From the sequence record DRR378314_251: 64,000 nucleotides of DNA; one strand, given 5' to 3'. How positions within the stretch are numbered: the first letter of the stretch is position 1; every line of letters begins with the position of its first letter. Positions 1 through 29,588 of the stretch are shown one piece after another. The position numbers and the translations under genes were made by a program. A model generated the notes under the pieces. The model saw only the letters and a program-made list of their open reading frames with translations, did not search any database and was not told where the DNA came from.

Positions 1-6
1 GCCTTT

Positions 7-879
7 TTGACGCTCTACTTCAACAGTATTGACAGAGCCGGGCATCGGGATGGACCTGAAGGAGATGAAATCAACGCCGCTCTGCGCGAGCTTGATCGTC
101 ATATAGGTCTGTTCATGGAAGGACTGACCGAACTGAATGTCCACGCCAATCTGGTTATTGTGTCAGACCACGGCATGGCACCGGTCAGCTCTGAACGCGT
201 GATCGTGCTGGATGAGGTGACTGACCCAAGCTTTTACAGAGTATTTGAAGACGGCGCCTATGCGAGCCTCGAACCTCTTGAGGCGCACATGAAAGCAGTT
301 GAATCTGCCCTTCTTGCCCATCACCCACATATGCAATGTTGGCACAAATCGCATATTCCGAGCCAGTATCAGTACGGATCCCATCCGCGCATTCCAGCCT
401 ATTTCTGCCTCGCCGACCCAGGTTGGACAATTGTCCAGTCTCGTCCCGAAACGCCTTGGGAAGGTGGGTCCCACGGTTACGATCCGTCTTCTCCGTCGAT
501 GGCAGCATTGTTTATTGCGAACGGACCCGCATTTCGTGCCGGAGCGCGGATAGAGACATTTCAAAATACGGCTATCGCACCCTTACTGCGTTTTCTGATT
601 GGTTTGGACAAGGAGCCCTCTGACGTCGTTCTGGACACATTGTCCCCTGCCCTCACGACCCATTCGACCGGCACTTGCACTAAGTTTCTGCAACCAGGAT
701 TTCGAACCGGGCTGCCGCCGAAAGCGTGCCAGCCTGTTCCATCTGGGTCTGCCCCTTCAAATCGGAAAGATAGTCCAGAAAAGCGTCATACGCCCGAACC
801 GGATCTCCCTGTGCAGCGGCAGCCTGTTTCTGAACCTGAACTTGATCAATCAGATCAAATCGCTGATGTGGGTCCATAG
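7..879 (+). CDS. Alkaline phosphatase superfamily / nucleotide pyrophosphatase-phosphodiesterase (5'-truncated by window edge)
   Basis: Motifs D-x-x-GH (IDRAGH), IVSDHGM, GSHGYD, ALFIANGPAF; homology-like sequence ends near 660 and the tail to 879 overlaps the opposite gene. Confidence 0.85.
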   Translation: MTLYFNSIDRAGHRDGPEGDEINAALRELDRHIGLFMEGLTELNVHANLVIVSDHGMAPVSSERVIVLDEVTDPSFYRVFEDGAYASLEPLEAHMKAVESALLAHHPHMQCWHKSHIPSQYQYGSHPRIPAYFCLADPGWTIVQSRPETPWEGGSHGYDPSSPSMAALFIANGPAFRAGARIETFQNTAIAPLLRFLIGLDKEPSDVVLDTLSPALTTHSTGTCTKFLQPGFRTGLPPKACQPVPSGSAPSNRKDSPEKRHTPEPDLPVQRQPVSEPELDQSDQIADVGP

Positions 880-1162: not shown

Positions 1163-1538
1163 ACTGATTACTCCTGTTTTCCTGGAAGTATCTCAGTGCG
1201 TTGGTAAAGGCATCCCTAATCGCCCCCCGCCAGCTGGACGAAACCAAAGGCTGAGTGGCGCTTCACGTCAGCTTAAGTGTACAAGTATTCTGCCCAATAG
1301 TCCCGAGACCAGGAATCGCTCATGCTCCAAGACGCTGCGCTTGCCTGGCGGAAACGCATTCGGAAGGATGCGACACATCCTGGATGAGTTCAGAATATCT
1401 GACATTCGGCTACCAGCCGATGAGCGCCCCCAAATGTTCGATAACGTGGAATTGATAGTCCAAGATGTTTCAGATTGGTCCGTGCTTGCATAGGCTAAGC
1501 TGAAACATGCGCGATCAAGTCACGACAGAGGACCCATT

Positions 1539-2018
1539 ATGCAAAAATCCAAACTCAAATATGTGGCGCTTGGGTTCACCTCATTGGTTTCCTTCGCCCT
1601 TGTCAGCGGTTGCCAGTCCCCTTTGGCCGCTCAGGAAACCCTGGAAGATGCGAATCTCGCCAAGGCCATCCAGTGTATGGAAATCGTGGAAGTCGATCTG
1701 GACGTTGCCCGTTTCGGAGACGAGTGCGTGGCTGAGGGTTATATTCAGCACTCGCCTCATGTGCCTGACGGAAAGGACGGTCTTCTCACCTATTTCGAGG
1801 GACGCGTGGAACGCTATCCGGAGATGCATGGCGAGATAAAGCGGGCGGGCGCTGATGGAGACCTGGTCTGGCTCCATATGCATTTTAAAGCCGAACCAGA
1901 AGCCCCTGGTAATGCGGTCATGCACATCTTCCGGATGGAAGACGGAAAGTTCGCAGAACACTGGGGCGTCGGCACACCTGTCCGCAAATCCGAACTACAC
2001 GACAATTCAATGTTCTGA
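1539..2018 (+). CDS. SnoaL/NTF2-like lipoprotein
   Basis: Lipobox LVSGC; YIQHSPHVPDG, ADGDLVWLH, HIFRMEDGKFAEHW motifs; GAGGA RBS. Confidence 0.85.
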   Translation: MQKSKLKYVALGFTSLVSFALVSGCQSPLAAQETLEDANLAKAIQCMEIVEVDLDVARFGDECVAEGYIQHSPHVPDGKDGLLTYFEGRVERYPEMHGEIKRAGADGDLVWLHMHFKAEPEAPGNAVMHIFRMEDGKFAEHWGVGTPVRKSELHDNSMF

Positions 2019-2198
2019 CCGGGCAATGGATCTGGTTCAGGCTTCCCGCAATCGTCTATCGACACGCGGTGCCCCGTCAGAGCGCCTCCAGCTACCCTGC
2101 GGACCGGGAAGTGGGATACCGGGACGATATGAACGCCAGACGAGCGCCTGTCCCTTTAAGGGTCACAACCGAGTAAAACAAACCAAATTGGAGCTTTA

Positions 2199-2678
2199 AT
2201 GCGATCTTACTTTTTCAAGCGCCTGACGCCGCTTACCGGCACACTTGCAAGCCTCAGCCTTCTTGGCGCCTGTCAATCGCCTGCGACACTTGAAACCGCC
2301 AGGGAAGAAGCCAATCTGGCTAAAGCCATCCTCTGCATGACAATCATGGAAGTCGACCTCGATGTGGACCGCTTCGGAGACGAATGTATTGCCGAAGGAC
2401 ATATTGAGCATGCCCCACATGTACCAGATGGCAAGGACGGTCTCATAACCTATTTCGAAGGCCGCGTGGAACGGTTTCCGAAAATGCATGGTGACATCAA
2501 GCGTGCCGGCGCTGATGGTGACCTCGTCTGGATGCATATGCATTTCAAAGCCGAACCGGACGTTGCCGGCAATGCAGTCATGCACGTCTTCCGGATGGAA
2601 GACGGAAAGTTCGCCGAACATTGGGGCGTCGGCACCCCTGTTCGTGAATCCGAACTGCATGACAACTCGATGTTTTAG
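2199..2678 (+). CDS. SnoaL/NTF2-like lipoprotein, tandem paralog of 1539..2018
   Basis: Lipobox LLGAC; near-identical C-terminal two thirds; GGAG RBS. Confidence 0.85.
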   Translation: MRSYFFKRLTPLTGTLASLSLLGACQSPATLETAREEANLAKAILCMTIMEVDLDVDRFGDECIAEGHIEHAPHVPDGKDGLITYFEGRVERFPKMHGDIKRAGADGDLVWMHMHFKAEPDVAGNAVMHVFRMEDGKFAEHWGVGTPVRESELHDNSMF

Positions 2679-2715
2679 CCTGGCCAGAATACTTCTTCAC
2701 TCTGGAGTTCGATGG

Positions 2716-3633
2716 ATGTCTTTCCTGTTTCGCGTCGTTCTAGCTGCGCTCCCGCTTGCCATTTCTGCACCATGGGCAATAGCTCATGATCACGGCGCCA
2801 CCTCCATTGTTCAGGTCACTGATCTTGGTCATGGCGTCTATGAGTTACGTACAGACCAATCAGGCAATGTCGCTATCCTGATTGGAGAAGATGGTGTTTT
2901 GATGGTCGACACCCAGATGGAACATCTGGTCGAAGCGATCGACGATTCTCTTATGGAATTGTCCGGGGGACGCGGCGTGGACCTTATCCTGAATACTCAT
3001 TTGCACCGGGATCATGTCAGGGGAAACGCCTATTATGCAAGGCGGGGCGCCCAGATCATGGCCCACCCCAATGTCCGCAAATATCTTGAGCAGCCACGGG
3101 CCATTGTCGCCTTGGGCCGAGACGCACCCAGCATCGGCAAAGACTACCTTCCGGCCATCAATCTCGTCGAAGGCAGCAGCATAACAATGAACGGTCAGAC
3201 AGGCCGTCTCTACCACACTCCTGCAGCTCACACCGATGGCGACCTTTTTATCCATTTCGAAGAAGCCAACATCATTCACGCAGGAGACCTTCTGGAGTCC
3301 GGCCGTTTCCCATTTGTTGACATCGACAATGGTGGCACCGTCGCCGGCTATATTGCCGGCATGGAAAAAATCCTTGAAGTCGCCGATGAGGACACTGTCA
3401 TTATTGCAGGACATGGTCCGACCTCTACGGAAAAGGAGGTGGAAGCCAGTATCGCGATGCTTGAAGAAACCTATTCCATTGTGGGCGATCTGGTAGAGCA
3501 GGATCTGACCCTCGATGAGATCCTCAACATCAACCCACTTTCAAATTACAGCGATGCCTGGGACTGGGAATTTATCGATACGCGCCGAATGACGACGATT
3601 CTGTATTATGACTTGACCGGAAAACTGGACTGA
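2716..3633 (+). CDS. Secreted MBL-fold metallo-hydrolase (cyclase-like)
   Basis: THLHRDH, AHTDGD, HAGDL, IAGHG motifs; signal peptide from ATG 2716 with GGAG RBS. Confidence 0.9.
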   Translation: MSFLFRVVLAALPLAISAPWAIAHDHGATSIVQVTDLGHGVYELRTDQSGNVAILIGEDGVLMVDTQMEHLVEAIDDSLMELSGGRGVDLILNTHLHRDHVRGNAYYARRGAQIMAHPNVRKYLEQPRAIVALGRDAPSIGKDYLPAINLVEGSSITMNGQTGRLYHTPAAHTDGDLFIHFEEANIIHAGDLLESGRFPFVDIDNGGTVAGYIAGMEKILEVADEDTVIIAGHGPTSTEKEVEASIAMLEETYSIVGDLVEQDLTLDEILNINPLSNYSDAWDWEFIDTRRMTTILYYDLTGKLD

Positions 3634-3945
3634 GGCCCAGATCGCAGCGAGAGATTGATCCGCCCTTTTATGGGATCGCTGGGTAGATCAAGCTTACGGG
3701 ACGCTGTCAGGAATTCTTCAAACGATACCCAGAATTATTGACAACGCAGTTGTGCCGTAAACTGGATCTACGATCCAGAAGGACGGTTACGCTCACCCGC
3801 TGCAGAGCATCTCGGCCCGGCACTGATGCTGCACGACGCTTGTTCCCGGACGCCTCAATTCAATCAGCAGCGCCTCCCACCTAATATGGCTGGGTCAGAG
3901 TATGGCAGCTCGGTCAAAAACCGGAATCAAAACATGCCTATCCGT

Positions 3946-4221
3946 TCACTCATCGATCATCGCCACCAACACTGACAGGTCAGCAAAGAAGGCATCCTCA
4001 TCATCGGGATTGTCTGGCAGGAGCGACCAACCCACCTGGCTCAGCCGTTTCTCTCGGGATGCTGGCGTCATGACGCTGATCCATTCCAGATCTGTTATCA
4101 GCTTTTGCCTTTGTGCCACGCTCATCGATTGTTCAACGAATAAAAGCGCCTGCCCCAAACTCGCGGCGACGTCGTCCGTCGTTTCCGGCAACTGGAGCGC
4201 AAAAAGTTCTAGTTCATCCAT
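3946..4221 (-). CDS. Putative immunity protein (CdiI-like, 91 aa, acidic)
   Basis: AGGAG RBS, ATG 4221, 14 nt after the toxin stop; small, acidic, helical, no signal peptide. Confidence 0.65.
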   Translation of the reverse strand: MDELELFALQLPETTDDVAASLGQALLFVEQSMSVAQRQKLITDLEWISVMTPASREKRLSQVGWSLLPDNPDDEDAFFADLSVLVAMIDE

Positions 4222-4235
4222 GATAAATCTCCTGC

Positions 4236-4910
4236 TCAGTAGAGCTTGGCAGAAACCGGATAGACGCGGTTCGTCCCCGGAATGGTTTTCAGAAAGAAGG
4301 CCCCTTTGGTGGCAATTGAGTATGTATTGTGCCGACGCGAATAGACCGTCCCTACAGGGGACTTGGCATCGAACTTGACTGACAATGGACCACGCTTTGC
4401 AGGAGGTGTTTTCAACCAAGCACGAATTTCGGCCCTGTTCGCGCGCAGCGCCCGAGCGTACATCGTATCGGCTTGTCGTCCGGTCCTGAATGTTGAAGTC
4501 TGTTTCGGGCTCATATTGTAGTTTCTGAGTTGCCGATTGGCTTTCCGGGCGTCGCGGCGGAACCCTTTGGGGACTTTCTGCATGTCGGTTTTGGTCAACT
4601 TGCGTCCGGACACACCGAGACGCGCGGCCTCGAAGTTCAGGCGCATGCCTTTCTGAGCAGCTCTTTGGGCGAGTGCAGAACGAGATTGCGCGACATGCTG
4701 GTTAAGATGCCCGCCATTCTGCCGGCTGCGCTGAACGGCGCGGGACTGATACCCTGCTCCGTTCCGGGTCTGCGACCGTCCGCCAGTTCGGTTCGATTGG
4801 CGTGCAGACGTTTGCGCCCCCTTTCCCGCAATGGCCGTCGGAGCGAGCATCGTTATCAGAAACGATGCACCAAAAGCGTGAAGCATCTGTCTGCGTTGAA
4901 TGGGACTCAT
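4236..4910 (-). CDS. Putative Tat-exported toxin with bacterial RNase A-like (CdiA-CT type) domain
   Basis: N-terminal QRRQML + hydrophobic stretch + AIA; GGHLNQHV...TSTF...ALRANRAEIRAWL...VG...FLK pattern of the RNAse_A_bac domain; very basic. Confidence 0.7.
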   Translation of the reverse strand: MSPIQRRQMLHAFGASFLITMLAPTAIAGKGAQTSARQSNRTGGRSQTRNGAGYQSRAVQRSRQNGGHLNQHVAQSRSALAQRAAQKGMRLNFEAARLGVSGRKLTKTDMQKVPKGFRRDARKANRQLRNYNMSPKQTSTFRTGRQADTMYARALRANRAEIRAWLKTPPAKRGPLSVKFDAKSPVGTVYSRRHNTYSIATKGAFFLKTIPGTNRVYPVSAKLY

Positions 4911-5644
4911 GGATACATCTCCTCATCATCGTGGAAACTGATCTGGATGAAACTGTAATCGAGCCGGCACTCGGGAGCCGGAAAGGCGCACTCTTGAATG
5001 GGCTTCACCAGTATTGGTCCGGCGATCCGTCCACGCTCAATATCTCCGCCTTTTCCCAAGGGTGCATTATCACGGACATGAAAACGCATTGCCTGAGCCA
5101 ATTCATCGACGTCCGCGCTTCGGCGATCTTCACTGAAGATCACCGCATCGATAAATTCCATCCTCTGCTCATTCGCTTGCTCAGCGCGATCTGCCTGCCG
5201 ACGCGCGAAGCGTTTCAACGCTCGCACCGCATCAGATGCAGACGCCCCCTCATCAGTCCACTCACGGGTCTGCTGAGTCGCGTTCTGCACCGTATTGTAG
5301 GCTGCCGATTCCAGATCATATACGAGGACACCGAACGGGCCTGACATACCCGCCAGATCCTCGAATTCGCACCAGTTTCGGTCAGGGCAAACCGACAAAT
5401 ATTGTTTCGTGTCCCGCAGAATGCACCGATGGCCAGCCTGACCAAACAGGCAGATCGCAAGATCAGGGGGGGAGGCCGTGGTCACCGGCGTCGGCAGGAC
5501 ATAGAACGACCTGCCGTCCCATCCCTGCCCCGAAGGGGTGTCTCCCGTAACCTCAATACGGATATTCATCTGAGCACTGGCTCCGGAAGGGAGCGAACCA
5601 GCAAGCACAATCAAACCCACCAAATTCAACAATTTACAGATCAT
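4907..5644 (-). CDS. Secreted Cys-containing protein, possible C2-like domain
   Basis: AGGAGG RBS, ATG 5644, Sec signal (ASA|Q); G-x-x-WD...PD...VYDLE pattern; stop overlaps toxin start (ATGA). Confidence 0.65.
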   Translation of the reverse strand: MICKLLNLVGLIVLAGSLPSGASAQMNIRIEVTGDTPSGQGWDGRSFYVLPTPVTTASPPDLAICLFGQAGHRCILRDTKQYLSVCPDRNWCEFEDLAGMSGPFGVLVYDLESAAYNTVQNATQQTREWTDEGASASDAVRALKRFARRQADRAEQANEQRMEFIDAVIFSEDRRSADVDELAQAMRFHVRDNAPLGKGGDIERGRIAGPILVKPIQECAFPAPECRLDYSFIQISFHDDEEMYP

Positions 5645-5699
5645 GTTTTCCTCCTGGGAATGTGCCGGGCCGACAACTCGCGGCCCGGCTGGAAACGAC

Positions 5700-6269
5700 T
5701 TAGCGATGAACCAGCGACTGAACATTGCGGACAACTTCTTCCACCATTGAGTCGAAGACTTTGACCCCACGCTCGATGTCCTGATCGATCCGGCTTTGGA
5801 GGTCTGCTGTAGACTGACGGAATCGGTCTTCACTCATCCGGCCGGCCTGAAGCGACTCCTCAAGCATTTTGTACCGACGCATTTCTTCTTCGGCGAACTC
5901 AAAGCGGAACTTGAAGATATGCTCCGAGTTCCGGCGGATCGCCTCTTCGACCATGCTGACAACCTTGCTCTTGAGTTCGCCGGCACGTTCGTGATCAGCA
6001 ACCATGATCCGGCTCTTCAAATAGGTCTCATCGAGGCGCAGTTTCGACAGCACGATTGACGTACCAATCTCAATGGCCTCCTTCTGCACCTCTTTTTGAG
6101 CCTTGGCCTTCAGACGGCTCTGGTGCAGCGCAGTTCTCAAATTATCGATGACATTGATCTCATTGCTGCCCGCCGCGTCGCTGATGCTTGGCATCCTGTT
6201 GATATCCTCGCTGACGACAGGCGAATTAGCGGAGTAAGGCCGAATACGTGATGGATTGGAGTTGGACAT
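5700..6269 (-). CDS. Cytoplasmic coiled-coil hypothetical protein (189 aa)
   Basis: GGAGG RBS before ATG 6269; E/K/R/Q-rich helical sequence. Confidence 0.7.
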   Translation of the reverse strand: MSNSNPSRIRPYSANSPVVSEDINRMPSISDAAGSNEINVIDNLRTALHQSRLKAKAQKEVQKEAIEIGTSIVLSKLRLDETYLKSRIMVADHERAGELKSKVVSMVEEAIRRNSEHIFKFRFEFAEEEMRRYKMLEESLQAGRMSEDRFRQSTADLQSRIDQDIERGVKVFDSMVEEVVRNVQSLVHR

Positions 6270-6315
6270 GATGAGCCTCCTTTCTTGAGGGCTTTTGGGG
6301 GGGGAGTTGGATGGA

Positions 6316-7848
6316 TCAACCAAAGTCAAACTGACCCTGGCCGGCCCGGTTGAACGCTTGCCGCTTGATCTTCGAGAACATGGCGGCCTCCTGGAAATCA
6401 TCATCCTCAGCAAGGCGTTGCAGGCGCCGGCGCAAGAGCCGGCTGGCTTGCTCCTGATGACGTTCTTCAATTTCTGCCAACCGGGATTCCGACTGGGCAG
6501 ACTGCATGAAGCTGATCTCCGCAGGTGCAGCGCCGAGCGCGTGCTGGACCAGTGCGGCCAGGTCGAGGGTTATGATCAGAAATTTCAGACCAAACCCCAT
6601 GACAATGTTCAGAAAGCTGGAAAAGTAGACCACTTCGAGTGCGCGCAGACGTGCGCTCAGGCTCAGGTCAAGTGGCTCGTAGCGTGGATCCGCCTGCATC
6701 TGCGCTGAGACCCAATCATTGCGCTCGTCGATAAAGCGCACATGTTCCTGACGCAGCTGATCCTGCCGGTTCAAAAGTACAGCCAGCTGCGCTTCATAGT
6801 CTTCACGCAGCTCAGCCTTGCGACGCGCTTCAGACACGCCCTCCTGGCTTGCTTCCGTACGCAAGTTATCAATTGAGGCCTGAAGTCGTTCGGCTTCCTG
6901 GCTCAGACGAACAATTTCCGCTTCGGCTGCTTCGGCCTGCTGGCGGTGGAACAGGCAACGATCATAACATCCGCGCCGACCGCTCGCCCCTTCCATATCA
7001 ATCCCACGCGCCTCCGCAGCCTCAAGGGCGCGATGATGACGAGCACGATTGCGAGCATCTGCGAGCTCAGTCTCAATCCGCTCCAACTGCTGCCGCGCTG
7101 CAACCAGATCTGCATTGGTTACACTCGTTGTTGCCGCATCGGCCTCATGCTGGCGCTTCAGTCGCTGAATATCTCCATCCAGACCACTGATCTGCCCCTG
7201 CAGGCCCTCAACGCGTTTGTCAGCCTCGTCCATATAATGCTCACGGACGATCGAATTTTCAGTCTCGTTCCAGCCCTCGAGCACCTCTTTGGAGTCCGAG
7301 CTGTAGAGGATTGTGCCCAGGATCAGACCGAACACACTTGCAAAGATGACCGACAATCCAGCCCGGAAAACAAAAACCCAACGCACTTTGGAGTGGGGAC
7401 CATCGCCCATTTTGCGAGCTTCAAGCTGACGGGCGCCTGAAACGGCAAAGGTGTGCGATATGAAGGCAAAATCAAAACAGAGAATAATCGACGCCACCAG
7501 GAGGGAAATGGAGACCCGCACCAAGGTCGATGCGTCCGACGACACCTGCCCCAGACCCAGAAAGACTGCCGAAAAAACGATGGTCGCTCCGAGAAACGGA
7601 GACAGCGCGTAGCGCACAACTGCGACGCGTTCGCGGAAGGTCGCTTGTCGAAAATCGACCGGATCTACGCCAACCATGGCTAGAAAAAAGGCCAGGATAC
7701 CACCCCAGAACCCGGAATACGGGCCCATAGGCGGGTCTCCAGCTGCGCCTGAAGGCGGCGTAGCCGATGCTCCATTCCTAGTTGCATTATTGTCTGCCGC
7801 CGCGCTGTGACCATCACTTTCTGACGGAACTTCGAACTTCTGAACCAT
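6316..7848 (-). CDS. DUF4407-family membrane protein with long coiled coil
   Basis: Several N-terminal TM segments (…IILCFD…FRAGLSVIFASV…), long coiled coil with a CYDRC turn, then LSARLRAL + C-terminal TM; AGGAG RBS. Confidence 0.75.
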   Translation of the reverse strand: MVQKFEVPSESDGHSAAADNNATRNGASATPPSGAAGDPPMGPYSGFWGGILAFFLAMVGVDPVDFRQATFRERVAVVRYALSPFLGATIVFSAVFLGLGQVSSDASTLVRVSISLLVASIILCFDFAFISHTFAVSGARQLEARKMGDGPHSKVRWVFVFRAGLSVIFASVFGLILGTILYSSDSKEVLEGWNETENSIVREHYMDEADKRVEGLQGQISGLDGDIQRLKRQHEADAATTSVTNADLVAARQQLERIETELADARNRARHHRALEAAEARGIDMEGASGRRGCYDRCLFHRQQAEAAEAEIVRLSQEAERLQASIDNLRTEASQEGVSEARRKAELREDYEAQLAVLLNRQDQLRQEHVRFIDERNDWVSAQMQADPRYEPLDLSLSARLRALEVVYFSSFLNIVMGFGLKFLIITLDLAALVQHALGAAPAEISFMQSAQSESRLAEIEERHQEQASRLLRRRLQRLAEDDDFQEAAMFSKIKRQAFNRAGQGQFDFG

Positions 7849-7957
7849 GACACGCTCCTGACTTGCCTTTTCGTGGCTCGGTCAGACTGCGCTGGGATGA
7901 TCCATTTCCCATCACGGGTAACGTGCAGCTGAATTTTTTTAAGTCAGAAGGTTGCCG

Positions 7958-8003
7958 AAAACGTGAATTTCGTCAGAACTCATTAACAGGGGATTCACGT
8001 TTT
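7958..8003. promoter_or_regulatory. Perfect 11-bp inverted repeat in divergent promoter region
   Basis: AAAACGTGAAT (7958-7968) and ATTCACGTTTT (7993-8003), 24-nt spacer. Confidence 0.45.
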
Positions 8004-8023
8004 TGTGGATGAGCGGAGGTGTT

Positions 8024-11000
8024 ATGCTAACACACGAAGATGTGTGGGAAGCGCTTGAACAAGCGGGGATTTTCCAACTCGACTTCACCAACCAGCTAGA
8101 TGCATATCGAGCTGTCAAAGCCAAGGGCGGCGACAACTACACAGGGCATTTCTGGTATGAGGTCGACCAGAACGGTCTGGGCATGTTGGTCAGGCTGGAT
8201 ACTGCAGGTCGGGTGCTGGAGCAAGAGGCGGCAAGAACCGGCAAGCAGTTCTCTCGTCTGAACGCGTACGAACATTTACTGGCCTATGCCCAAAAACGGG
8301 GACGCAAGGGGCGCCCCGGTCGCCCCTATGATCCTGGCAGTCCCAAATATGCGTTTCTGCCGGCCCAGGAGGTTGCGCAAAAGCTGGACGGACAGGATTA
8401 TGACGCGCTACGCAGGCCGCGTCATGAGCGCAATGTGAAACTCCAATACCTGGTCATTCAGGAATATGCGCAGTTCTATTGCGATCAGCTGCAAACCCAT
8501 GTGCGCCCAAAAGACAGCCCCCCATTGTCCGCCTGGGAATTCCTGCACAAGCCGTTTACGCAGAAAGGCGCAATCAGCGCCTTCGAAGACTGGATCTGTG
8601 GACGAGCCCCGATCCGCACCGATATTCTGAGCGCCTATCGGCGCATTGGAAGCCCTGATGAAGACTGGGACTTCCACAGTCAAACCGATGACAGGACCGA
8701 ATTGCTGGACGACTTGTCCTCCTGGTTGAGCAAGACAGGAAAGTCGACCCGCATGCTCTGGAACATTCATGCGCCAACCTCGTGGTCAGGTTTGTCAGCC
8801 CTTGCCAATCACATTCTTCGCCAGGACTGGAAGGCAGGCGGCAAACTGCTACGCCCGCTCTGTGTTCCGGTCATCCTGGAAGGACATCGCAGAGCACAAT
8901 TCAGTCACTCGCAGATATTGTCCCTGCTCTTGTCATTTACTCGCGAAGAGCCTCATCCGGGTATTGTTCCGCCCCTTCCTCCTGGCACAGACCCAGGACA
9001 GGTCATGCTGGAGATACGTCAGAGACTCGCCAGTAAGCCTGCTCTGATCGTCTTTCTGGGCTTTGGAGAGAGACGCAATGGCGTTTACGAGACCCTGAGG
9101 GTTATTCGGGATGACTATACAATATCTACCATCATCCCAAATCTCCTGGAACCACCCAGCCGTGCCATAGACGGTCCGCTGGATCTGGGTACTTGGCGCC
9201 GCAACCGAATTCTCCTGCTGAGCAATGATGACATTTCAAACGTCGCCGACGGGCGTCATGCGCTTTCAGACACACATCCCGAATTGAGCCGATATCGGGA
9301 AGTCATGTTGAAACGGCCAAAGATCACTCGCCTTACAGATGCTCCCGATGATGACCAGACAGCAATAAAGATCATCAAAGGTCACAATTATATTCATGGT
9401 CGCGCCATCCTCTCAACCCGCGAGCGCAGGCATAGTTTTTGGCAAAAAGCGATCTCGGAAAACGTCTTTCGTACGATTGATGCACTCATTTCCCTGCAAG
9501 GGGCTCTGGCTGTGGACCATTCGCCGTCCGGCATCGGCATGGATGTCGATCGGGATCTTTTTGCGCATCTTGAAACGCTTCACGACAATACGGCAGGAGA
9601 TGATCCTCGTCTGGAGGTAAGCGTTCGCCACCTGCTCACTCTGTTGGAGAGACACAAGCCCGTCTGGGCTTTGTGCCTCAAGATGATTGCCGAAACACCG
9701 GGTGGGTTGAGGTCCAGAACACTCTGTGACCTGCTCATGCGATTTGCCGACTGGGCCGATGACAAGATGGGCGCAACTCTTGCATCTCATCTTCAGAGCC
9801 ATCTCGACCGGCACGAAAGGCAGAAATGCGCCGAGAAAGAAATCGAGACGATGCTTGATACGCTCTCGCCAATTCTGTCATTCGGCCGCGTCCAGGATTT
9901 TCCTGATCTGAAGCGACCCGCGGCCCACTTCGGCCTGAGGGGAGCGCGGTTCGCAAGTATCGCGCAAGAGGATCTGCAAGCAATCGAGTTCACCCTCCCT
10001 GGAGTTCGAGATCAAATCATCTGCGCACTTCACGATTCAAAGGATGGAAAAGATCTCGCCCAACTCATTCATCTGTTACTTTGTGATGAATCCCTACGCC
10101 AGCATACAGACGCCACAGTTGCGTCAAATGCATGGGACACTCAAATCACAAGACCCTATCGACGCCTGGTGCAGGCTATATTTCACGGGCTCAATGCCCT
10201 TCGTCCAAATGACACACGCGACGGGTGGGTCAGTCCCAGACTATCTGGGTGGGATGGCATTATTCCAAGTGACCCAGACTTGCTCTGGCGGGAACTCTAC
10301 CTGATACATTTCCGAGAGACACTTGAACGTCCGGGTGAATGGCGCCTCGCGAGAGTTTTCGCCAACGACCAATTGAAAATGGAGCTGCTCTTCGGCTTCG
10401 TAAGACCCTGGTTGCTGAACTGGTATGCCGATACGCCCTACCCGGAAGATCTGACAGTATTTGATCTCCTTGCTTCAAGAGACATTGTGCCCGAAGCAGT
10501 CAAAAGCCTGATGGTGGCCGATTGTCAGGCTTGCGCGGCACTCAACCTGTCTCCCAAGCTCATTCCGGATCGGCAACACTCATTTGTTAAGCAAGGCGAT
10601 TCCAACCGCAAACTCGATAAATACGCTGCTGACCGGGAAATTCTGGCTGCCAACACGAAATCCGCTGCGCATATCTGGAGGCGTATGCTCAATAGCGCGT
10701 TACCTGACCTGCTTACAACACAGAGTTTGGTGGCTTCGTCCTCTCACGAAGCCCAGAACACAGATGACCATAAGGTCTTTCTGACACGGCGTGCGCGGGA
10801 GTTGATTACGCTTATCAGCGCATTCGCGGGAAAGGCGCGCGACCTGATCTCTTCGAAGAACTTTGATACCCGGCCCAGCTTCCTGATTTCAGCTGAGGAC
10901 GCCGCAGTCCGCATGTTCCTGCGCGGGGTCTCTGCCCCAGAACGCCGTCATCTTGTCAACGCACTGAACCGACGGGCTGAATGTCTCGCCGTAAGGGCAG

Positions 11001-11734
11001 ATCGCCGGAGAGGACTGCGCGCACTCGATCCCTCGGCACTCCGCCAGCAAAGCGGCACGGAAAGCCAGGACCCATCCGACGAAGACGTGCTACACATGTT
11101 TGCCCATGCATTTGCAACCTATGAAGTTGCTGAACTCATACGCAAAACGACATTCGAGATGTCACCATTCTCGGGCGAGCATGCTGTTTCGGGACATGCA
11201 ACGCGCGGCGCTATTCGTCTCTCTCTGATCCTGGAGCGCGAAGCCGGACGCACCCTGCCGTCAGAGGCCTTGAAAGAGCGGTATGCAGCATTGCGAGGTC
11301 CCGGCATGTTTGGTCAGTATGCGATACGCATGAAGGATGAATTGACACGAAGTCTCGGACGATTTCCCCGGGAGCGGGCCTCCATTCTCATCCTTGAAGC
11401 CGCAATGATCCGTATCATGGAAGCTCATATTTCAAACCCGGAAGAACTTCAGCGCGCCATGGGCCTGTTGCAGGAAGCCGAGAGCCTTGTTCTGGGTGTT
11501 TCAGCAACGGCACGCCTGCGCCTTCGCTTCCTGCTGGAGCGCGCAAAGCTGCATCGGCAGATTGCCCTCGTTCAGCGCAATGGATCCACAGAATTGGCAA
11601 AAAGGACATTCGATGCAAGCAAGCATGATCTTGACACGGTGGAATCGCTCTCGAGAAAGCTCAAACTGCCGCTCTGGGAAAGCATTGCTCAAATCCAGCT
11701 GCAGAAGCTTCAGAAAGTTCGCAATAGCGCTTGA
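8024..11734 (+). CDS. Large hypothetical protein with degenerate STAND/NB-ARC-like NTPase and helical C-terminus
   Basis: GGAGGT RBS, ATG 8024; R-x-E-L..L..WL, HAPTSWSGLSALA (Walker A-like, no Lys), ALIVFLGFGE (Walker B-like, no Asp), RILLLSN (sensor-1-like). Confidence 0.65.
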   Translation: MLTHEDVWEALEQAGIFQLDFTNQLDAYRAVKAKGGDNYTGHFWYEVDQNGLGMLVRLDTAGRVLEQEAARTGKQFSRLNAYEHLLAYAQKRGRKGRPGRPYDPGSPKYAFLPAQEVAQKLDGQDYDALRRPRHERNVKLQYLVIQEYAQFYCDQLQTHVRPKDSPPLSAWEFLHKPFTQKGAISAFEDWICGRAPIRTDILSAYRRIGSPDEDWDFHSQTDDRTELLDDLSSWLSKTGKSTRMLWNIHAPTSWSGLSALANHILRQDWKAGGKLLRPLCVPVILEGHRRAQFSHSQILSLLLSFTREEPHPGIVPPLPPGTDPGQVMLEIRQRLASKPALIVFLGFGERRNGVYETLRVIRDDYTISTIIPNLLEPPSRAIDGPLDLGTWRRNRILLLSNDDISNVADGRHALSDTHPELSRYREVMLKRPKITRLTDAPDDDQTAIKIIKGHNYIHGRAILSTRERRHSFWQKAISENVFRTIDALISLQGALAVDHSPSGIGMDVDRDLFAHLETLHDNTAGDDPRLEVSVRHLLTLLERHKPVWALCLKMIAETPGGLRSRTLCDLLMRFADWADDKMGATLASHLQSHLDRHERQKCAEKEIETMLDTLSPILSFGRVQDFPDLKRPAAHFGLRGARFASIAQEDLQAIEFTLPGVRDQIICALHDSKDGKDLAQLIHLLLCDESLRQHTDATVASNAWDTQITRPYRRLVQAIFHGLNALRPNDTRDGWVSPRLSGWDGIIPSDPDLLWRELYLIHFRETLERPGEWRLARVFANDQLKMELLFGFVRPWLLNWYADTPYPEDLTVFDLLASRDIVPEAVKSLMVADCQACAALNLSPKLIPDRQHSFVKQGDSNRKLDKYAADREILAANTKSAAHIWRRMLNSALPDLLTTQSLVASSSHEAQNTDDHKVFLTRRARELITLISAFAGKARDLISSKNFDTRPSFLISAEDAAVRMFLRGVSAPERRHLVNALNRRAECLAVRADRRRGLRALDPSALRQQSGTESQDPSDEDVLHMFAHAFATYEVAELIRKTTFEMSPFSGEHAVSGHATRGAIRLSLILEREAGRTLPSEALKERYAALRGPGMFGQYAIRMKDELTRSLGRFPRERASILILEAAMIRIMEAHISNPEELQRAMGLLQEAESLVLGVSATARLRLRFLLERAKLHRQIALVQRNGSTELAKRTFDASKHDLDTVESLSRKLKLPLWESIAQIQLQKLQKVRNSA

Positions 11735-11799: not shown

Positions 11800-12843
11800 C
11801 TACTCAGTTTCCTCACGGAGCCTGAAACCATTGCGAATATCCACACTGAATATCCGGGTCGGTACATCAAGGTATGCATAGACTGCTGACAAGCGTTTCC
11901 GAAATCGTATATCATTTGTGATGATCGCGTCGCACAGGCTGGCATAAGCGGCATGGGAGAGGTCAGAGTGACTGGAGATAAACTTGCCGGACCGCGAGAG
12001 TCTCTTGTCGGACTGATATCCGATGAGGTTCAGGATCAGCATCATACTCCTGACCTTGTCCGGGATAGTGTAGGGCCTGCCTGTATACGGGCTCTCTCCC
12101 TCGACATGACAAAAAGTTTCAAATGACCAGCCGCTCACCGCGTTATTCGTCAATTGGATTAGCGACCAGATCTGCTCGATCACATTGTCACCCTGAATGG
12201 AATTCAGTGCCTCAATGTCGAGCCCCAAATCTTTGCGGAAATCGACACTCGTCACCTGCCTGCCGCTTGGCTGGAGATTTGCCGCCAGGGTCTGAGCCGT
12301 CGACGAGACCGCACTGGAGGCTATGGCGATGATAGAGTCATGCAGTTGGTCGAGGAGCTCTCGGAAGTCCTCAGGCAAGTCGAACTGGTCCAACTTGTTT
12401 TTCCACGCCCTTCGCATCTCCGTCATCTGGGCAGCCGAGATGTCTTCAAACGTGCGCTCTGTCTCGCCTCCAAACAGCTTGTGAAGCATGCCCAGGCCCT
12501 GAAGGTCGGGTGAGGCCAGTAACCCTTCTCCAAGCGTTTCCTGATAGCGCTCTTGTGGACTCTCTATCCGCATTTTAAACCGACCCGTCGGCATGAACCG
12601 GTGATCCCGTTCATCGAAAACCCGCGCTGTCACGAATTTTGAGAGATTGCCGAGAAACTGAGGTGCGAGGCCTTCTGATCGCACAATCTCGTTTATGGTC
12701 TCATCGGAATATACAAGCACAACCGTGTCGCGCCATGCCTCGAAGACCTCTGACGAAATAAGCGCCTCAAGCGGCGCCCCTAATATGTTCTGATCGACAT
12801 AAATCACAGGACGTGGAAGGTCGTTTAGATTTTCTTCTGCCAT
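11800..12843 (-). CDS. PIN-like domain protein
   Basis: IYVDQNIL, YSDETINEI, SDLSHAAYA and IITND acidic PIN pattern with a large insertion. Confidence 0.65.
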   Translation of the reverse strand: MAEENLNDLPRPVIYVDQNILGAPLEALISSEVFEAWRDTVVLVYSDETINEIVRSEGLAPQFLGNLSKFVTARVFDERDHRFMPTGRFKMRIESPQERYQETLGEGLLASPDLQGLGMLHKLFGGETERTFEDISAAQMTEMRRAWKNKLDQFDLPEDFRELLDQLHDSIIAIASSAVSSTAQTLAANLQPSGRQVTSVDFRKDLGLDIEALNSIQGDNVIEQIWSLIQLTNNAVSGWSFETFCHVEGESPYTGRPYTIPDKVRSMMLILNLIGYQSDKRLSRSGKFISSHSDLSHAAYASLCDAIITNDIRFRKRLSAVYAYLDVPTRIFSVDIRNGFRLREETE

Positions 12844-13280: not shown

Positions 13281-13425
13281 TTGGTTGGCATTTTAGCGCG
13301 ATTCCCTTCAGAGATGGAGCTGTTTTGACCGTGTAGGTATCTGCGAAGCGGAAGTGGGATCTGCCTCGGGACTCAAATCGTGTAGGGCTTCCCGCTCTTC
13401 GTGGACCCTAGGGGAGATATTGGGC

Positions 13426-16400
13426 GTGAAGCACAATGACTTTGTAGACCTCGACCGCCGGTTCGAACCGGTTGGCGCACGCGACCGACACGAAAGCGAC
13501 GAGACAGGACTTCGCATGTTCCTGCCGGACTCGGCCTCCGGACTTGCCTGGCAGGAAGTCTTGGCATTTCGCACCGTTGTCATCCTGGGTCGTGCTGGCT
13601 CAGGCAAGACAAGGGAGCTCTTGAATCAGACACAACGCCTTTCAGAACAGGGCAAGGCCGCCTTCTATGTCAGGCTGGAGGCATTGACCAGTTCCAGTCT
13701 GGAAGAGGCCCTCGGTGAGAAAGGCGATCGCGAACCTGTCGAGCAATTCCGCAAATGGAAGCGTGGCAAGACTGAAGGATACTTTTTCCTCGATGCCCTC
13801 GATGAAGCGCGGCTACCTCGCGGACGAAACGGCATCATCCTCGATGCGGCACTTGCCGCCTTCAAGCATGCCATCGGGCCAGCCAGGAACCGGGCATCCC
13901 TCATTCTGTCTACCCGAGGAAGTGAATGGCACGACGAGACAGACAGGCCAAAACTGCAGGACATTCTTGTCTGGCTGAACCGGCAGGATGCCGCACAGTC
14001 AAAAGCGGACGGTCGTGGCCCCACCGCTACGGACACGCCAACAGACCCGGCACATCTGAAAATCCTTGCCCTGTCGCCACTTAGCCGCTCGCAGCTTGTC
14101 AAACTCGCTTCGGCACATGGTATAGAAGCTGAAAGCTTTGTCGGTGCCGTAGAGACAGCAAAGGCGGTTGTTCTGGCCCAGACACCGCTGGAAGCCCGGA
14201 TGTTGATCGATGTCTGGAAAGGCAATCTCGATGCGGGCCTGCCCGGTGCAGCCGGATTTGAAAGCCGGCGCCGGCTCTTCCAACGGGCAATCGATTATGC
14301 GCTTCGCCCGCGCCCCGATGCAGAGCGCCGTTCCGATCTCAGCCAGCCTGCTGCCATCGAAGGACTGCAAGCGCTCGCTGCAGCCTGCACATTGAGCGGA
14401 AAGCGTGACTTCGCGCTTGCTGCAGGCTATGACACCGATTGCCTCGATCCACACGCTATCCTGGGTGCGCTCAGCGATGAATGGACAGACGCCAGTATCC
14501 GCCAACTTTTCAGCTACGGCTTTTTCGATCCGGCTTCGGCCGGCCGCATTCGGTTTGCCATCAGGGAAATCCAGGACTTCCTCGCGGCCGAATTTTTCGA
14601 CCGCGCGATAGACAATCTCGGTGGCAATCTCGCCCCCCTCTCGCCTTTACTCGGTGTGTTTCTGGACCGTAGCTACGTCCCACCAGACCTTCTGAATTTT
14701 TTCGGGTGGCTTGCCACGATGAACCCCGCTGCCAGGCGGCTCGTGATCGATATTCATCCTACGCTGCTCATGGAAACCGGCGATCCTGGTCTCTATAGCA
14801 TTGACGAACGGGCAGGCGCGCTGCGCAGTCATGCAGCGCAGTACGAAACTCAGATCTTCCGGGGAGAACACTTCTACCGCGATGACCTTGAGGCCTTTGC
14901 ACATCCAGACCTTGCCCCTACCGTTGCAGACCTGCTTTCGACAGCCACGTCTCGCGAACTGCGAGAAAACCTTGTCGCGCTCGCCCAACATGGCGACATG
15001 GAAAGCCTTTCCGGTCTACTCTGCGACATTGCCTGTAATCAGAATGAAGCCCGCAGGATCAGGACGCAAGCAAATCTCGCGCTCCAGGCGTTTGGCGGGC
15101 AGGACTTGCGCGACCGTGTCCGCCGCAGCATGGATGAGGACATCGCTACCGCAGGCGAGATCGACCCCGAAGCGGCATCCACCTGGAATGGCTGGCTCCT
15201 TACAGGTCTCGGCTTCGTGGCGCCAGGCCTCAGCGCGATTGGCGACGTCGCAACCTATCTCGAACATCTCGCCCGGGAACCGAAGAATCTTGCCTCTGCC
15301 AGCGGCTATTATGCGAGTGATCTTGTCGCTGCAGCACAGGCCTCCATCCCCGGCGACTGGCTCGGCGCACTTCTCGGTCTCATTCTGGATCCAACTGCCA
15401 ATCAGAACGATCACCTGCCGGCGCCCCTGCCCGCGCGCCTTATGCTGCTCCAGCCGATATCCAATCTCGTCCTTGATGAACTAAGTACCGGCGCAAATGC
15501 GGCGCCGACCGAAGATTTCATGACGGCGATTGAACTGTTCTGCGGTCTTACGCACCGGGAGGGCAGTTTTGCCTTCTCAAAGAGTGTGAGTGAAATCGCC
15601 GACAGGCTGCGAGCCGCGTCGGACGCCAAGTTCGCTCTCATTCGGCGCCGACTTCACCTCGTGAGACCGGATCGGATCTGGTCTTATGATGCGCTCGGTC
15701 CGCTCAAACTGTCGGAACGACATGGTCAGGAGGGCCTCTGGACGACAGAAGATGTTATGCGTGCCCTCGATGAGGCCGAAACGGCGGAAACGACAGACGA
15801 AATTCGGACCTGGTATGCAATTGCCCGCGGCCTGATCTTCGAAGCAGGACCGTTGGAGCACCGGAAGTCCGTTTTCAAGCGTTTGAACCGGTTCGAGCGC
15901 AGGAGCCATGATCCTGAAATCCGGCGCTTTGCTCCAAAACGACCAGAGGCCTGGCATAGGGCAAAGTACAAATTCGTGCATGGCGGTAGCAACAGGCTCA
16001 AGCGCGCACTTGTGGACAGGATTTTTTGGCCGTGGCGGCAAGTTCACCGCGCCTGGCTCTTGCGCCAGAGCTTGCCGAAGATCCGCTCAGGGACCCATCT
16101 CAATTTTCTCCACACTTCCATGTTCGAAGCAACCCGAAATAATGAGGCCTGGAGTGTGCAATCCGTACTCCGACATATTGCTGAAACCGATGGCCGCTTG
16201 GCCCGGAGGGCGGCAGACGCCGGCTACCGCGCGGTCTGGCGGTCGTTGGACCCGTCCATTTTGACACATTCCGATGGCTGGGCCATTGCCGATGTCGCCT
16301 ATGCCGGCCTGCAGCTGGACCGGACGTCCGGCAAGCTCCTCCATGATCGAAATGAAACCGCCCGTTGGTGTACAATCGCGCTTCTCAGTGAACACTGCAA

Positions 16401-17787
16401 CCTCCCAGACCTTGCTGATTTCTATCTCCCCGCACACAATGAAGTCGTCCGGCAAACTCTTGAGGCTCCACTCCGGGCTGCGCTTGCCGCAAAGCCTCCC
16501 CCTCAGGATGGACCTCACCGGCTTATTTCTGCCCTCGCCTACGGACCCGGCCTGGTCAAAGCTGCGGCAGCGCCACTTATCGCAGACCTGCTTGCCGAAC
16601 AGCCCATCATTCCTGCCGCCGACCTTGCCTATCTGCTCCCCATCCTCGCACATGATGGCGAAGCCGGGCTGATCGGCCCGGCCTTCCTGCGTCGGCAATT
16701 TTCAGAATCCGCTGCAGAAGGCCAGTACAAAAGGGCCTGGATCTGGCTTGAGCTTCTGTTCAGGACCGATCCGGACGACGCCGTGCGAACGCTCGCCCCC
16801 TGGACACCACACGTCTGGCCGGAAGATAGGACAAGCCCGCTCATGGGTTTCATCGCTGACTTCGGCAACCTGATGAACCGGTCACGACACGATCCTGACC
16901 GACGCTCTGATGCCCTTCACGGCTCTGCTTCGGCGCTCGGCGTTCTTGTCCGACTCGCCTGGCTGATCGCGCCGCCCGAAACCGATATCCGGCACGAAGG
17001 CGTTTACTCTCCAGGCATGCGGGACAAGGCCGGTGACCAGCGCCGCCATTGGACGGACAGTCTGGTCGGGCTGGCAAATGAAGCGGGTTATCAGGAACTC
17101 ATGCGCCTCGCCGACCTCCCTGAACTGGTCGGCCAGAGAGATCTCTTCCACTATCACGCCGAACGACTTGTCCGGCTGGGAGCCAGCCGTCATCTGCCGG
17201 GAAATGATGACATTCCCCGCCTGATGTCCGGGCTCCGCTCCACTCCCCGCACCCGGGAAGAGTTTGCAACCTATGTGAACGGTATTCTGGACGGCCTCCT
17301 TGAACGGTTCGTGAACTCCAACCACGATGAGGCACGCCCCTATCGCCAGTCGGCAGGAACGCCGTCCGAGCGGGATGAGGCGGATTTCCGGAACTGGCTG
17401 AGCGCTCGGCTCGAAGAAACCGGATACGAGGTCTTTTCGGTCACGCGTGAGCCTGAGGCGGCTAGTGAAAACAGGACCGACATCCTTGTGACAGCAAGAC
17501 GTACAGACCTTGGCTGCGTGGTTATCGAAGTTAAGCTCGCGGACCGTTCACACTGGTCCGGTGACGCACTGGTAAGCACGCTCGAGACGCAGGTGCGGGA
17601 CAGATACCTGCGCGAAGCAGAAAAGCATGCGGGCACGCTGGTGCTGCTGAATACGAGAGGGCCAGCGTTCAGGAAGCGGGTTGAGGGCCGCCTTGTGGAG
17701 TTTGAGGCACTGGTTGCAGCGTGCACGGCGCGTGCCGGCTCGATTGGAGGCGACAAGCGGTACAAAGTACTCGCCCGTGAAATTTGA
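13426..17787 (+). CDS. NACHT/STAND NTPase with helical repeats and C-terminal PD-(D/E)XK nuclease (Avs/bNACHT-like defence protein)
   Basis: Walker A GRAGSGKT, Walker B YFFLDALDE, LILSTR; C-terminus E..FRNWL…RE…RTDI…VIEVK; GTG start at 13426 after GGGAG. Confidence 0.85.
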   Translation: MKHNDFVDLDRRFEPVGARDRHESDETGLRMFLPDSASGLAWQEVLAFRTVVILGRAGSGKTRELLNQTQRLSEQGKAAFYVRLEALTSSSLEEALGEKGDREPVEQFRKWKRGKTEGYFFLDALDEARLPRGRNGIILDAALAAFKHAIGPARNRASLILSTRGSEWHDETDRPKLQDILVWLNRQDAAQSKADGRGPTATDTPTDPAHLKILALSPLSRSQLVKLASAHGIEAESFVGAVETAKAVVLAQTPLEARMLIDVWKGNLDAGLPGAAGFESRRRLFQRAIDYALRPRPDAERRSDLSQPAAIEGLQALAAACTLSGKRDFALAAGYDTDCLDPHAILGALSDEWTDASIRQLFSYGFFDPASAGRIRFAIREIQDFLAAEFFDRAIDNLGGNLAPLSPLLGVFLDRSYVPPDLLNFFGWLATMNPAARRLVIDIHPTLLMETGDPGLYSIDERAGALRSHAAQYETQIFRGEHFYRDDLEAFAHPDLAPTVADLLSTATSRELRENLVALAQHGDMESLSGLLCDIACNQNEARRIRTQANLALQAFGGQDLRDRVRRSMDEDIATAGEIDPEAASTWNGWLLTGLGFVAPGLSAIGDVATYLEHLAREPKNLASASGYYASDLVAAAQASIPGDWLGALLGLILDPTANQNDHLPAPLPARLMLLQPISNLVLDELSTGANAAPTEDFMTAIELFCGLTHREGSFAFSKSVSEIADRLRAASDAKFALIRRRLHLVRPDRIWSYDALGPLKLSERHGQEGLWTTEDVMRALDEAETAETTDEIRTWYAIARGLIFEAGPLEHRKSVFKRLNRFERRSHDPEIRRFAPKRPEAWHRAKYKFVHGGSNRLKRALVDRIFWPWRQVHRAWLLRQSLPKIRSGTHLNFLHTSMFEATRNNEAWSVQSVLRHIAETDGRLARRAADAGYRAVWRSLDPSILTHSDGWAIADVAYAGLQLDRTSGKLLHDRNETARWCTIALLSEHCNLPDLADFYLPAHNEVVRQTLEAPLRAALAAKPPPQDGPHRLISALAYGPGLVKAAAAPLIADLLAEQPIIPAADLAYLLPILAHDGEAGLIGPAFLRRQFSESAAEGQYKRAWIWLELLFRTDPDDAVRTLAPWTPHVWPEDRTSPLMGFIADFGNLMNRSRHDPDRRSDALHGSASALGVLVRLAWLIAPPETDIRHEGVYSPGMRDKAGDQRRHWTDSLVGLANEAGYQELMRLADLPELVGQRDLFHYHAERLVRLGASRHLPGNDDIPRLMSGLRSTPRTREEFATYVNGILDGLLERFVNSNHDEARPYRQSAGTPSERDEADFRNWLSARLEETGYEVFSVTREPEAASENRTDILVTARRTDLGCVVIEVKLADRSHWSGDALVSTLETQVRDRYLREAEKHAGTLVLLNTRGPAFRKRVEGRLVEFEALVAACTARAGSIGGDKRYKVLAREI

Positions 17788-23095: not shown

Positions 23096-23108
23096 TTGAG
23101 AGCCAGAC

Positions 23109-29572: not shown

Positions 29573-29588
29573 CGAAGGAGACTCGATT

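Follow-up and report, generated by a model that had tools for sequence, protein, structure and literature searches.

A predicted Tat-exported RNase A-like toxin and its putative immunity protein share an operon with a DUF4407 membrane protein in a marine alphaproteobacterium

Organisation of the five-gene operon

We analysed a stretch of 64,000 nucleotides from sequence record DRR378314_251 (the window, whose coordinates are used throughout), in which five genes, designated g1 to g5, occupy positions 3946 to 7848, all on the minus strand. They encode a DUF4407 inner-membrane protein of 510 aa (g1, 6316..7848), a soluble protein of 189 aa without family affiliation, the partner gene of DUF4407 (g2, 5700..6269), an acidic, cysteine-containing protein of 245 aa with a Sec signal (g3, 4907..5644), the 224-aa precursor of an RNase A-like toxin with a PF18431 domain (g4, 4236..4910) and an acidic protein of 91 aa, the putative immunity protein (g5, 3946..4221). 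The host is a marine alphaproteobacterium; the malate synthase encoded in the window shares at most 66% identity with any species representative, and its top matches are in Alphaproteobacteria.

The genes are closely spaced, with 46 nt between g1 and g2, 55 nt between g2 and g3 and 14 nt between g4 and g5, while g3 and g4 overlap by the four nucleotides ATGA. An AGGAG-like Shine-Dalgarno (SD) motif lies 6-10 nt upstream of all five ATG starts. The longest open reading frames (ORFs) of g2, g3 and g5 begin farther upstream; for these three, the starts with SD sites were adopted, and the g3 start so chosen fits the lengths of both g3 homologs. A terminator scan revealed no terminator-like site between the genes; on the operon strand it gave two sites, one upstream of the operon and one within g1, against a shuffle mean of 4.9. 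Judged from packing, SD sites and ATGA coupling, g1-g5 form one tight operon, in agreement with an earlier note on this DNA, which had described five co-oriented genes, each with a ribosome-binding site or translational coupling. The 154 bp that separate g1 from a divergent gene for a 1243-aa protein (7849..8002) are presumed, from position alone, to hold the operon promoter; a scan of this intergenic region for the sigma-70 consensus found no site.

The reading frames deserve a comment. Sequencing run X1, which probably represents the source data, carries 1-2-base indels at 5466, 5656, 6391, 6560, 6898 and 7500, within or near g1 and g3. Metagenome contigs X2, X3 and X4 have none of these indels wherever they span the sites, and the frames of g1 and g3 are therefore trustworthy. 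Indels of the X1 type account for a public copy of the same contig (3,516,122 bp), in which g1 is split (P0009, P0011, P0021) and g3 shortened (P0006). The X2 contig, from a marine-sediment metagenome, covers 1500-5791, a span that takes in all of g5 and g4 and the greater part of g3; over these 4,292 bases it has 50 differences. Pieces of 95-99% identity from the algae-associated metagenomes X3 and X4 cover g1, g2, g3 and g4, and one X3 piece also reaches part of g5. This coverage indicates that the operon is stable within the species.

The RNase A-like protein, its putative inhibitor and the coupled g3 product

By its sequence, g4 is a member of the family of bacterial RNase A-like toxins, and RNase activity is predicted for it. 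Residues 133-217 match PF18431 (RNAse_A_bac) with 43.7 bits (cut-off 27, E=5.6e-11), and the sole meaningful sequence match in the PDB is 5e3e_B, the CdiA-CT toxin of Yersinia kristensenii (E=0.016), which a profile of four g4 sequences recovered again, more weakly (E=0.25). Three homologs with 55-59% identity were found, every one with PF18431, and in the alignment of the four sequences conservation runs from residue 55 to the C-terminus. This conserved toxin region (residues 55-224; 4239..4748, minus strand) holds the putative catalytic residues H72, R83, T213 and Y217. In CdiA-CT of Y. kristensenii, His175, Arg186, Thr276 and Tyr278 contribute to activity, the Tyr being often Phe, according to PMC5435912; the corresponding motifs, LIDR-H-VGKTE, AELLN-R-VSTGN and GYKII-T-G-Y-PTP, were translated from mutagenic primers given there. 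Their counterparts in g4 are QHVAQS (H72) for HVGKT, R83 at +11, as in the Y. kristensenii primers, and TNRVYP (T213, Y217-P218) for TGYP. The motif set conserved in the g4 family reads HV[AG]xS, R at +11 and T...[YF]P: H72, R83 and T213 are invariant in all four sequences and position 217 is Y/Y/Y/F. Approximately 40 extra basic residues separate the His/Arg helix of g4 from the remaining domain. Mature g4, of about 22 kDa, has a pI of 12.0 and no cysteine. The basic toxin-domain protein coupled to its upstream neighbour by an ATGA overlap, as the earlier note had it, is recovered here with a family name.

What that note did not contain is a twin-arginine signal peptide at the N-terminus of g4 (residues 1-28; 4827..4910, minus strand), composed of QRRQML, a hydrophobic stretch and a cleavage site between AIA and G. 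In substrates of the twin-arginine translocation (Tat) pathway, the consensus S/T-R-R-x-F-L-K precedes a stretch of moderate hydrophobicity and a cleavage site of the AxA type. The g4 N-terminus has the motif, the stretch and the site, and Tat dependence is accordingly a prediction from sequence; its h-region is mildly hydrophobic (maximum Kyte-Doolittle value 1.56). R6 and R7 are invariant in all four family members (QRRQML, TRRRLL, SRRYVL and SRRKLI), and each of these N-termini combines the RR motif with a mild hydrophobic stretch and an AxA-type site. The conserved motif makes export of g4 by Tat probable. We read the conserved Tat signal as a sign of a toxin that is exported after folding, and has to be neutralised, in the cytoplasm.

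The product of g5 is a candidate for that neutralising role. It is small and acidic (pI 4.05), as had been noted, lacks a signal peptide and has no relatives by sequence in the PDB or Pfam. A complex prediction for g4(55-224) with g5 gave an interface score (ipSAE) of 0.68, compared with 0.13 for the best of three controls; 51 of 78 solved complexes attained that mark, as did 2 of 108 mismatched pairs. The runs share at least 88% of their contacts, the partner has a predicted local distance difference test (pLDDT) value of at least 80, and the confident contacts take in R83 and the C-terminal residues 220-224 of g4. Binding of g5 to g4 is thus predicted, and we regard it as likely. The family assignment of g4, its conserved motifs and a modelled complex that scores above its controls together support the reading of g4 and g5 as a toxin-immunity pair, which we hold with good confidence; the toxin followed by an immunity gene, proposed in the earlier note, has stood up.

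The g3 protein has a hydrophobic N-terminus (residues 1-23), and residues 1-25 are read as a signal peptide that ends in ASA before Q. Mature g3 is acidic (pI 4.7), and six cysteines (C65, C74, C86, C92, C219 and C226) are invariant in all three available sequences, as only two relatives were found (58% and 46% identity). Signal, acidity and cysteines fit a periplasmic or secreted protein. Of the two features previously assigned to g3, the Sec signal is retained, given the N-terminal hydrophobic segment, and the C2-like pattern could not be confirmed: g3 has no match in Pfam, its structural model is poor, and its look-alikes in the Atlas score 0.80-0.82, which is noise level, with one cluster (0.81) containing PF00168 in 30% of its members. 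Translational coupling and co-occurrence with g4 give about an even chance that g3 is a partner of the toxin.

The DUF4407 module, related loci and genomic surroundings

The g1 protein matches DUF4407 (PF14362) with 36.8 bits (cut-off 31.3, E=3.4e-9) and has the architecture of that family, in which a long coiled coil lies between transmembrane (TM) helices on one side and one more TM helix on the other, so that its description as a DUF4407-type membrane protein with a long coiled coil proved correct. An exhaustive HMMER search of 1.84 billion representatives yielded 64 relatives at E<=1e-3, most of them 450-530 aa long and of the same layout. The AlphaFold2 (AF2) model, built with 31 sequences, has a pLDDT of 87.1 and places membrane helices at about 71-102, 108-144 and 155-181 and a further hydrophobic segment at 397-437; by hydropathy, the four hydrophobic helices lie at about 80-103, 105-139, 155-185 and 406-441. 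Between the last two lies a helical hairpin (residues 183-386; 6691..7302, minus strand) with arms 183-281 and 296-386, and the C-terminus forms a long charged helix (443-505). The tip of the hairpin is a conserved, glycine-rich loop that is non-helical in the model (residues 282-295; 6964..7005, minus strand); the 31-sequence alignment shows no variation at E279 or G282 and at least 90% conservation at G290, G293 and G295. Other conserved positions are D126 and R162, both within membrane helices, and N198. The loop 134-156 contains five K+R versus two D+E, and the segment 183-215 four K+R versus ten D+E. Membrane proteins tend to follow the positive-inside rule, and with these charge counts the rule assigns the loop 134-156 to the cytoplasmic side and the beginning of the hairpin to the outer side. 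The hairpin is probably a periplasmic stalk, about 15 nm long if fully helical as modelled.

Searches for a function of g1 were unrewarding. Foldseek with the g1 model gave no match in the PDB at E<=0.001 and retrieved generic helical hairpins, with no solved secretion component among them. In PHROGs and PADLOC, g1 had coiled-coil matches only, the PADLOC one being LmuB (E=0.0036 over the coiled coil); this aside, none of the five operon proteins matched a defence system of PADLOC-DB 2.0. Among the papers searched, none gave a function for DUF4407, the name being absent from titles and abstracts. The g2 protein belongs to no family of Pfam, NCBIfam, PADLOC or PHROGs. It has no hydrophobic segment and is presumably cytoplasmic, as it had been described. 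Its look-alikes in the Atlas score 0.93-0.94, in unnamed clusters and with a low recognition value for the query, and are a lead only.

Homologs of three operon proteins probably occur together in a second organism. A DUF4407 fragment related to g1 (P0013), a relative of g3 (P0007) and a relative of g4 (P0078) each map to a single ENA contig, 36,780 bp long in all three cases, and, in view of the identical size, this is very probably the same contig. On this reading, g1, g3 and g4 co-travel there at 37-58% identity. The toxin on this contig has the same toxin domain as g4, conserved rather than variable.

DUF4407 is sporadic: it turned up in 3 of 401 Pseudomonadota genomes. The g1 profile found one match in 401 Alphaproteobacteria, a 734-aa protein of different architecture adjoining glmS, whereas in 401 genomes of another order its 26 matches were rejected as coiled-coil noise, because they cover only coiled-coil positions 176-365 of 487 in open frames of 491-1478 aa. 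Four other DUF4407 loci (G375, G511, G535 and G601) were inspected, and relatives of g3, g4 or g5 were present at none of them. In the unrelated genome G511, the DUF4407 gene (seen in 1 of 201 genomes when the order was sampled) has directly 3' of it a 190-aa ORF that resembles g2: this ORF is the sole phmmer match among 844 ORFs (E=2e-4), and its Smith-Waterman score is 90, compared with 40 +/- 7 for shuffles, none of 1000 of which reached 90. A g2-like profile run against the four DUF4407-bearing genomes found G511 itself only, plus a weak, unlinked match in G375 (E=0.0017). G375 has DUF4407 as a 734-aa fused form, and at G535 the DUF4407 gene extends past the contig end. G601 (L087, G601:C201 313-5018) contains two DUF4407 paralogs (448 and 464 aa) flanking a 347-aa membrane protein. 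DUF4407 and g2 thus look like a recurring pair, seen at one of the three other loci that could be evaluated, with no toxin there.

Some further features of these loci were recorded. In G511 (L088, G511:C1 10125-19140), the g2-like gene precedes an ORF of 132 aa with a membrane anchor, then a sigma-70 region-4 gene and, further on, genes for 260-aa and 1403-aa proteins without family; the 1243-aa neighbour of the operon in our window, considered as a relative of the 1403-aa protein, showed no similarity to it. Two small ORFs that overlap each other come before the G601 paralogs, and all genes of this locus lie close together on the same strand.

The toxin domain has its own distribution. Of 401 Pseudomonadota genomes, nine contained PF18431, eight with a score over the cut-off; the open frames concerned measure 86-1580 aa. 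At six other PF18431 loci the domain is C-terminal in an ORF of 149-589 aa, and a small ORF of 98-122 aa comes next in four of the six; one locus adjoins Hcp- and ClpV-like ORFs, recognised by eye from the ORF listing. None of the six has relatives of g1, g2, g3 or g5. A word-based homolog search with g1 gave no match, and pattern scans found no relative of g1 in genome contigs and none of g3 or of a JGI DUF4407 cluster in metagenome contigs. Relatives were likewise absent from viral contigs (g1 and g4), plasmids (g1, g3 and g4) and phages (g1).

To the left of the operon, the window contains a fragment of a type I phosphodiesterase/nucleotide pyrophosphatase gene (1..879, on the strand opposite to the operon), with three genes in between: two tandem SnoaL-like paralogs of 159 aa each with signal- or lipoprotein-like N-termini (1539-2018 and 2199-2678, plus strand) and a gene of the metallo-beta-lactamase fold. 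On the other side, the 1243-aa protein (8003-11734, plus strand), divergent from g1, is followed by a 347-aa protein (11800-12843, minus strand); neither has a match in Pfam, NCBIfam, PADLOC or PHROGs. In the strain of metagenome X2, a strand-switch joint falls between 10525 and 11334, inside the 1243-aa gene. Farther along lies a gene for a NACHT protein of 1477 aa (13354-17787, plus strand) related to the antiphage protein HyoA (NF058534, E=1.3e-176); its 589.7 bits are under the 1200-bit cut-off of that model, a weaker likeness to EruA was seen, and Pfam gave no match at E<=0.001. Genes for a 714-aa protein without family and a 534-aa TCAD9 protein (20951-24713, plus strand) constitute, by appearance, a second conflict-type system; the 534-aa protein combines TCAD9 (ternary-complex-associated domain 9) with a kinase-like APH region. 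With the HyoA-like NACHT and TCAD9 genes beyond its 1243-aa neighbour, the operon is located at the edge of a conflict-gene island. Next is a gene cluster (27403-30965, plus strand) for a tyrosinase that carries DUF7868, for a copper chaperone (PpoB2) and for an S8 subtilase, and the remainder of the window is devoted to lipid and terpene metabolism. No tRNA genes were found in the window, and no phage-family match was obtained for the five operon proteins or the two adjacent ORFs scanned. Domains of CdiA/CdiB, Rhs, type VI (T6SS) and type VII (T7SS) secretion systems and MafB are all missing from the 36 window proteins that were scanned against Pfam, in line with the earlier note, and the region after g5 (3634-3945) holds no ORF of at least 50 aa on the g5 strand that could be an orphan cassette.

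Proposed roles of the operon and comparison with known systems

On balance, and with guarded confidence, we favour the reading that the operon is a secreted toxin-immunity module (g3-g4-g5) joined to a DUF4407 envelope module (g1-g2). The very basic, cysteine-free RNase g4 would fold in the cytoplasm, where acidic g5 would bind it and hold it inactive, and the twin-arginine signal would direct folded g4 through the Tat translocon into the periplasm. Acidic and disulfide-rich g3, Sec-exported and presumably made in a fixed ratio with g4 via the ATGA overlap, would most likely meet g4 in the periplasm as an escort or holder. The two remaining products would be an inner-membrane DUF4407 protein with a periplasmic hairpin and its soluble cytoplasmic partner; we read them as a general envelope module, because the pair is also found without a toxin, and this module may have been co-inherited with the toxin in this lineage. 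That g1 and g2 are needed for release of the toxin from the cell seems doubtful. In a bolder version, a periplasm-spanning stalk of g1-g2 and the g3 escort would carry the Tat-exported, immunity-bound RNase to the cell surface or outside, which we consider quite unlikely; if true, it would constitute a two-step path of toxin secretion not previously described and the first function for DUF4407.

Several observations weigh against the favoured reading. The His and Arg motifs of g4 lie outside the stretch aligned by Pfam and the PDB match (133-217), so their equivalence to the Y. kristensenii residues was matched by eye on motif, without a structure. H72, T213 and Y217 are not among the confident g4-g5 contacts and, with a solved complex of the same toxin family (5e3e) in existence, model memory may contribute to the g4-g5 score, although g5 has no sequence relative in the PDB, which speaks against such memory. 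The single-sequence AF2 model of g3 (pLDDT 38.7) is unusable. Linkage of P0013, P0007 and P0078 is deduced from equal contig size. The second g3 relative (P0008, on a contig of 1,088,655 bp) has no P0004-like toxin among the matches of the g4 search, and none of the 30 DUF4407 matches checked, out of the 64 g1 relatives, is on that contig. Finally, none of the five genes encodes an outer-membrane component and g4 has no recognisable receptor-binding or translocation domain; the exit of g4 and its entry into a target are thus unaccounted for.

The earlier note had gone further and proposed that the membrane coiled coil and a membrane-binding adaptor may form a dedicated display or delivery apparatus. 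In the strong form of this idea, all five products would make up one machine, in which a DUF4407 stalk, with g2 at its cytoplasmic base, and a g3 adaptor present the toxin or pass it to neighbouring bacteria, with the toxin-immunity cassette attached to a conserved g1-g2-g3 core differing from lineage to lineage. The tight operon with its SD sites, coupled g3 and g4 and lack of an internal terminator is what such a machine would look like, three of the five products have predicted periplasmic parts, and homologs of g1, g3 and g4 recur on the second contig in spite of 37-58% identity. The different genes that follow the DUF4407 and g2-like pair of G511 would fit variable cargo, and the cargo could also differ next to P0008, given the absence of a P0004-like toxin from the matches. 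However, a variable cassette was not seen: all four toxin relatives share domain and signal, and no orphan follows g5. Scoring of DUF4407 neighbourhoods, by which the idea was to be checked, gave relatives of g3, g4 or g5 at 0 of 4 other loci, and relatives of g1, g2 or g3 were absent from the six other PF18431 loci examined. Moreover, the g1 fold matches no solved secretion component, and the inner-membrane step needs no new machine, as g4 has a general export signal of its own. A single five-part machine is, overall, unlikely, and the comparative test did not support the delivery apparatus in its original form; g1-g3 may have such a role, but neither variable cassettes nor DUF4407 loci at large speak for it. 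The link of DUF4407 to the toxin-immunity module is unproven.

Two other explanations dispense with delivery. The pair g4/g5 may resemble barnase and barstar, with an exported RNase that scavenges nucleotides or phosphate, an inhibitor that protects the producer and g1-g3 unrelated to both. The small size of g4, whose export signal is merely a general one and which shows no domain for receptor binding or translocation, the inhibitor without signal peptide and the phosphodiesterase/nucleotide pyrophosphatase gene 3 kb away would all suit this analogy, but that gene is on the other strand with three genes between, the operon borders the conflict island, and one of six PF18431 loci adjoins the Hcp-/ClpV-like ORFs noted by eye; we consider scavenging very unlikely. 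The same island, with its defence-type HyoA-related NACHT and TCAD9 genes, and the sporadic occurrence of DUF4407, both in Pseudomonadota and in the order of G511, could instead point to abortive infection, with DUF4407 sensing envelope damage and the RNase killing the infected cell. Against it, the Tat signal of all four toxin relatives would send the RNase away from cytoplasmic RNA, PADLOC recognises none of the five proteins beyond the coiled-coil match to LmuB, and no phage or plasmid relatives were found, so that an anti-phage role appears highly improbable.

The operon offers an experimental handle on DUF4407 and on the nameless g2-like partner family. If g1-g3 play no part in release, the locus amounts to no more than a small secreted toxin with its immunity protein, next to envelope genes that have nothing to do with it.

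The general logic of the pair is familiar. In barnase-barstar and in nuclease colicin operons, a secreted nuclease is paired with a small acidic intracellular inhibitor, and colicin operons have an extra small envelope protein that drives release. Barnase and colicin nuclease folds are unrelated to g4, and their export is by Sec or, for colicins, by a lysis protein, not by Tat. Furthermore, our operon has no gene for a lysis lipoprotein, and g4 has no receptor-binding or translocation domain. As for DUF4407, g1 scores above the cut-off of the Pfam family and shares its architecture, whereas the four other DUF4407 loci examined differ from the operon in having no relatives of g3, g4 and g5. In polymorphic toxin systems, as reportedly defined by Zhang et al. 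in 2012, the C-terminal toxin domain varies while the N-terminal trafficking scaffold is conserved, and orphan cassettes often lie downstream; in the g4 family, all four relatives have the same toxin domain from residue 55, and the operon has no orphan downstream.

The MafA-MafB-MafI system of Neisseria resembles the operon in its order of exported accessory protein, toxin with signal peptide and immunity protein, and in that a general pathway takes the toxin across the inner membrane, the outer-membrane step being unknown, as described in PMC4287609. According to that source, MafB combines an N-terminal DUF1020 domain and a Sec signal with C-terminal domains that are polymorphic, and it has orphan cassettes, features that our operon lacks, the lipoprotein MafA is dispensable for MafB secretion, and Maf islands, as covered there, are without a DUF4407 protein, unlike the operon.

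The closest relative by toxin family is the CdiA-CT/CdiI pair of Y. kristensenii (PDB 5E3E). The two share PF18431, counterparts of His175, Arg186, Thr276 and Tyr278 (PMC5435912) and an immunity gene directly next to the toxin gene, with g5 predicted to bind g4. They differ in that g4 is a free-standing protein of 224 aa with a Tat signal, where an effector of the CdiA, Rhs, T6SS or T7SS kind would carry the toxin at its C-terminal tip, that its His-to-Thr spacing is 141 residues versus 101, and that no PDB chain shows detectable similarity to g5 in sequence. RNase A-like toxins of bacteria mostly occur on contact-dependent or injection scaffolds, according to PMC5435912, and a search of titles and abstracts found, among the papers listed, no Tat-exported RNase toxin with an immunity protein. 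Thus, g4 is a member of a known toxin family on an unusual carrier, being free-standing, with a Tat signal and no scaffold. A free-standing RNase with a conserved Tat signal suggests another mode of deployment for this family, in which a folded and possibly immunity-bound nuclease would be exported.

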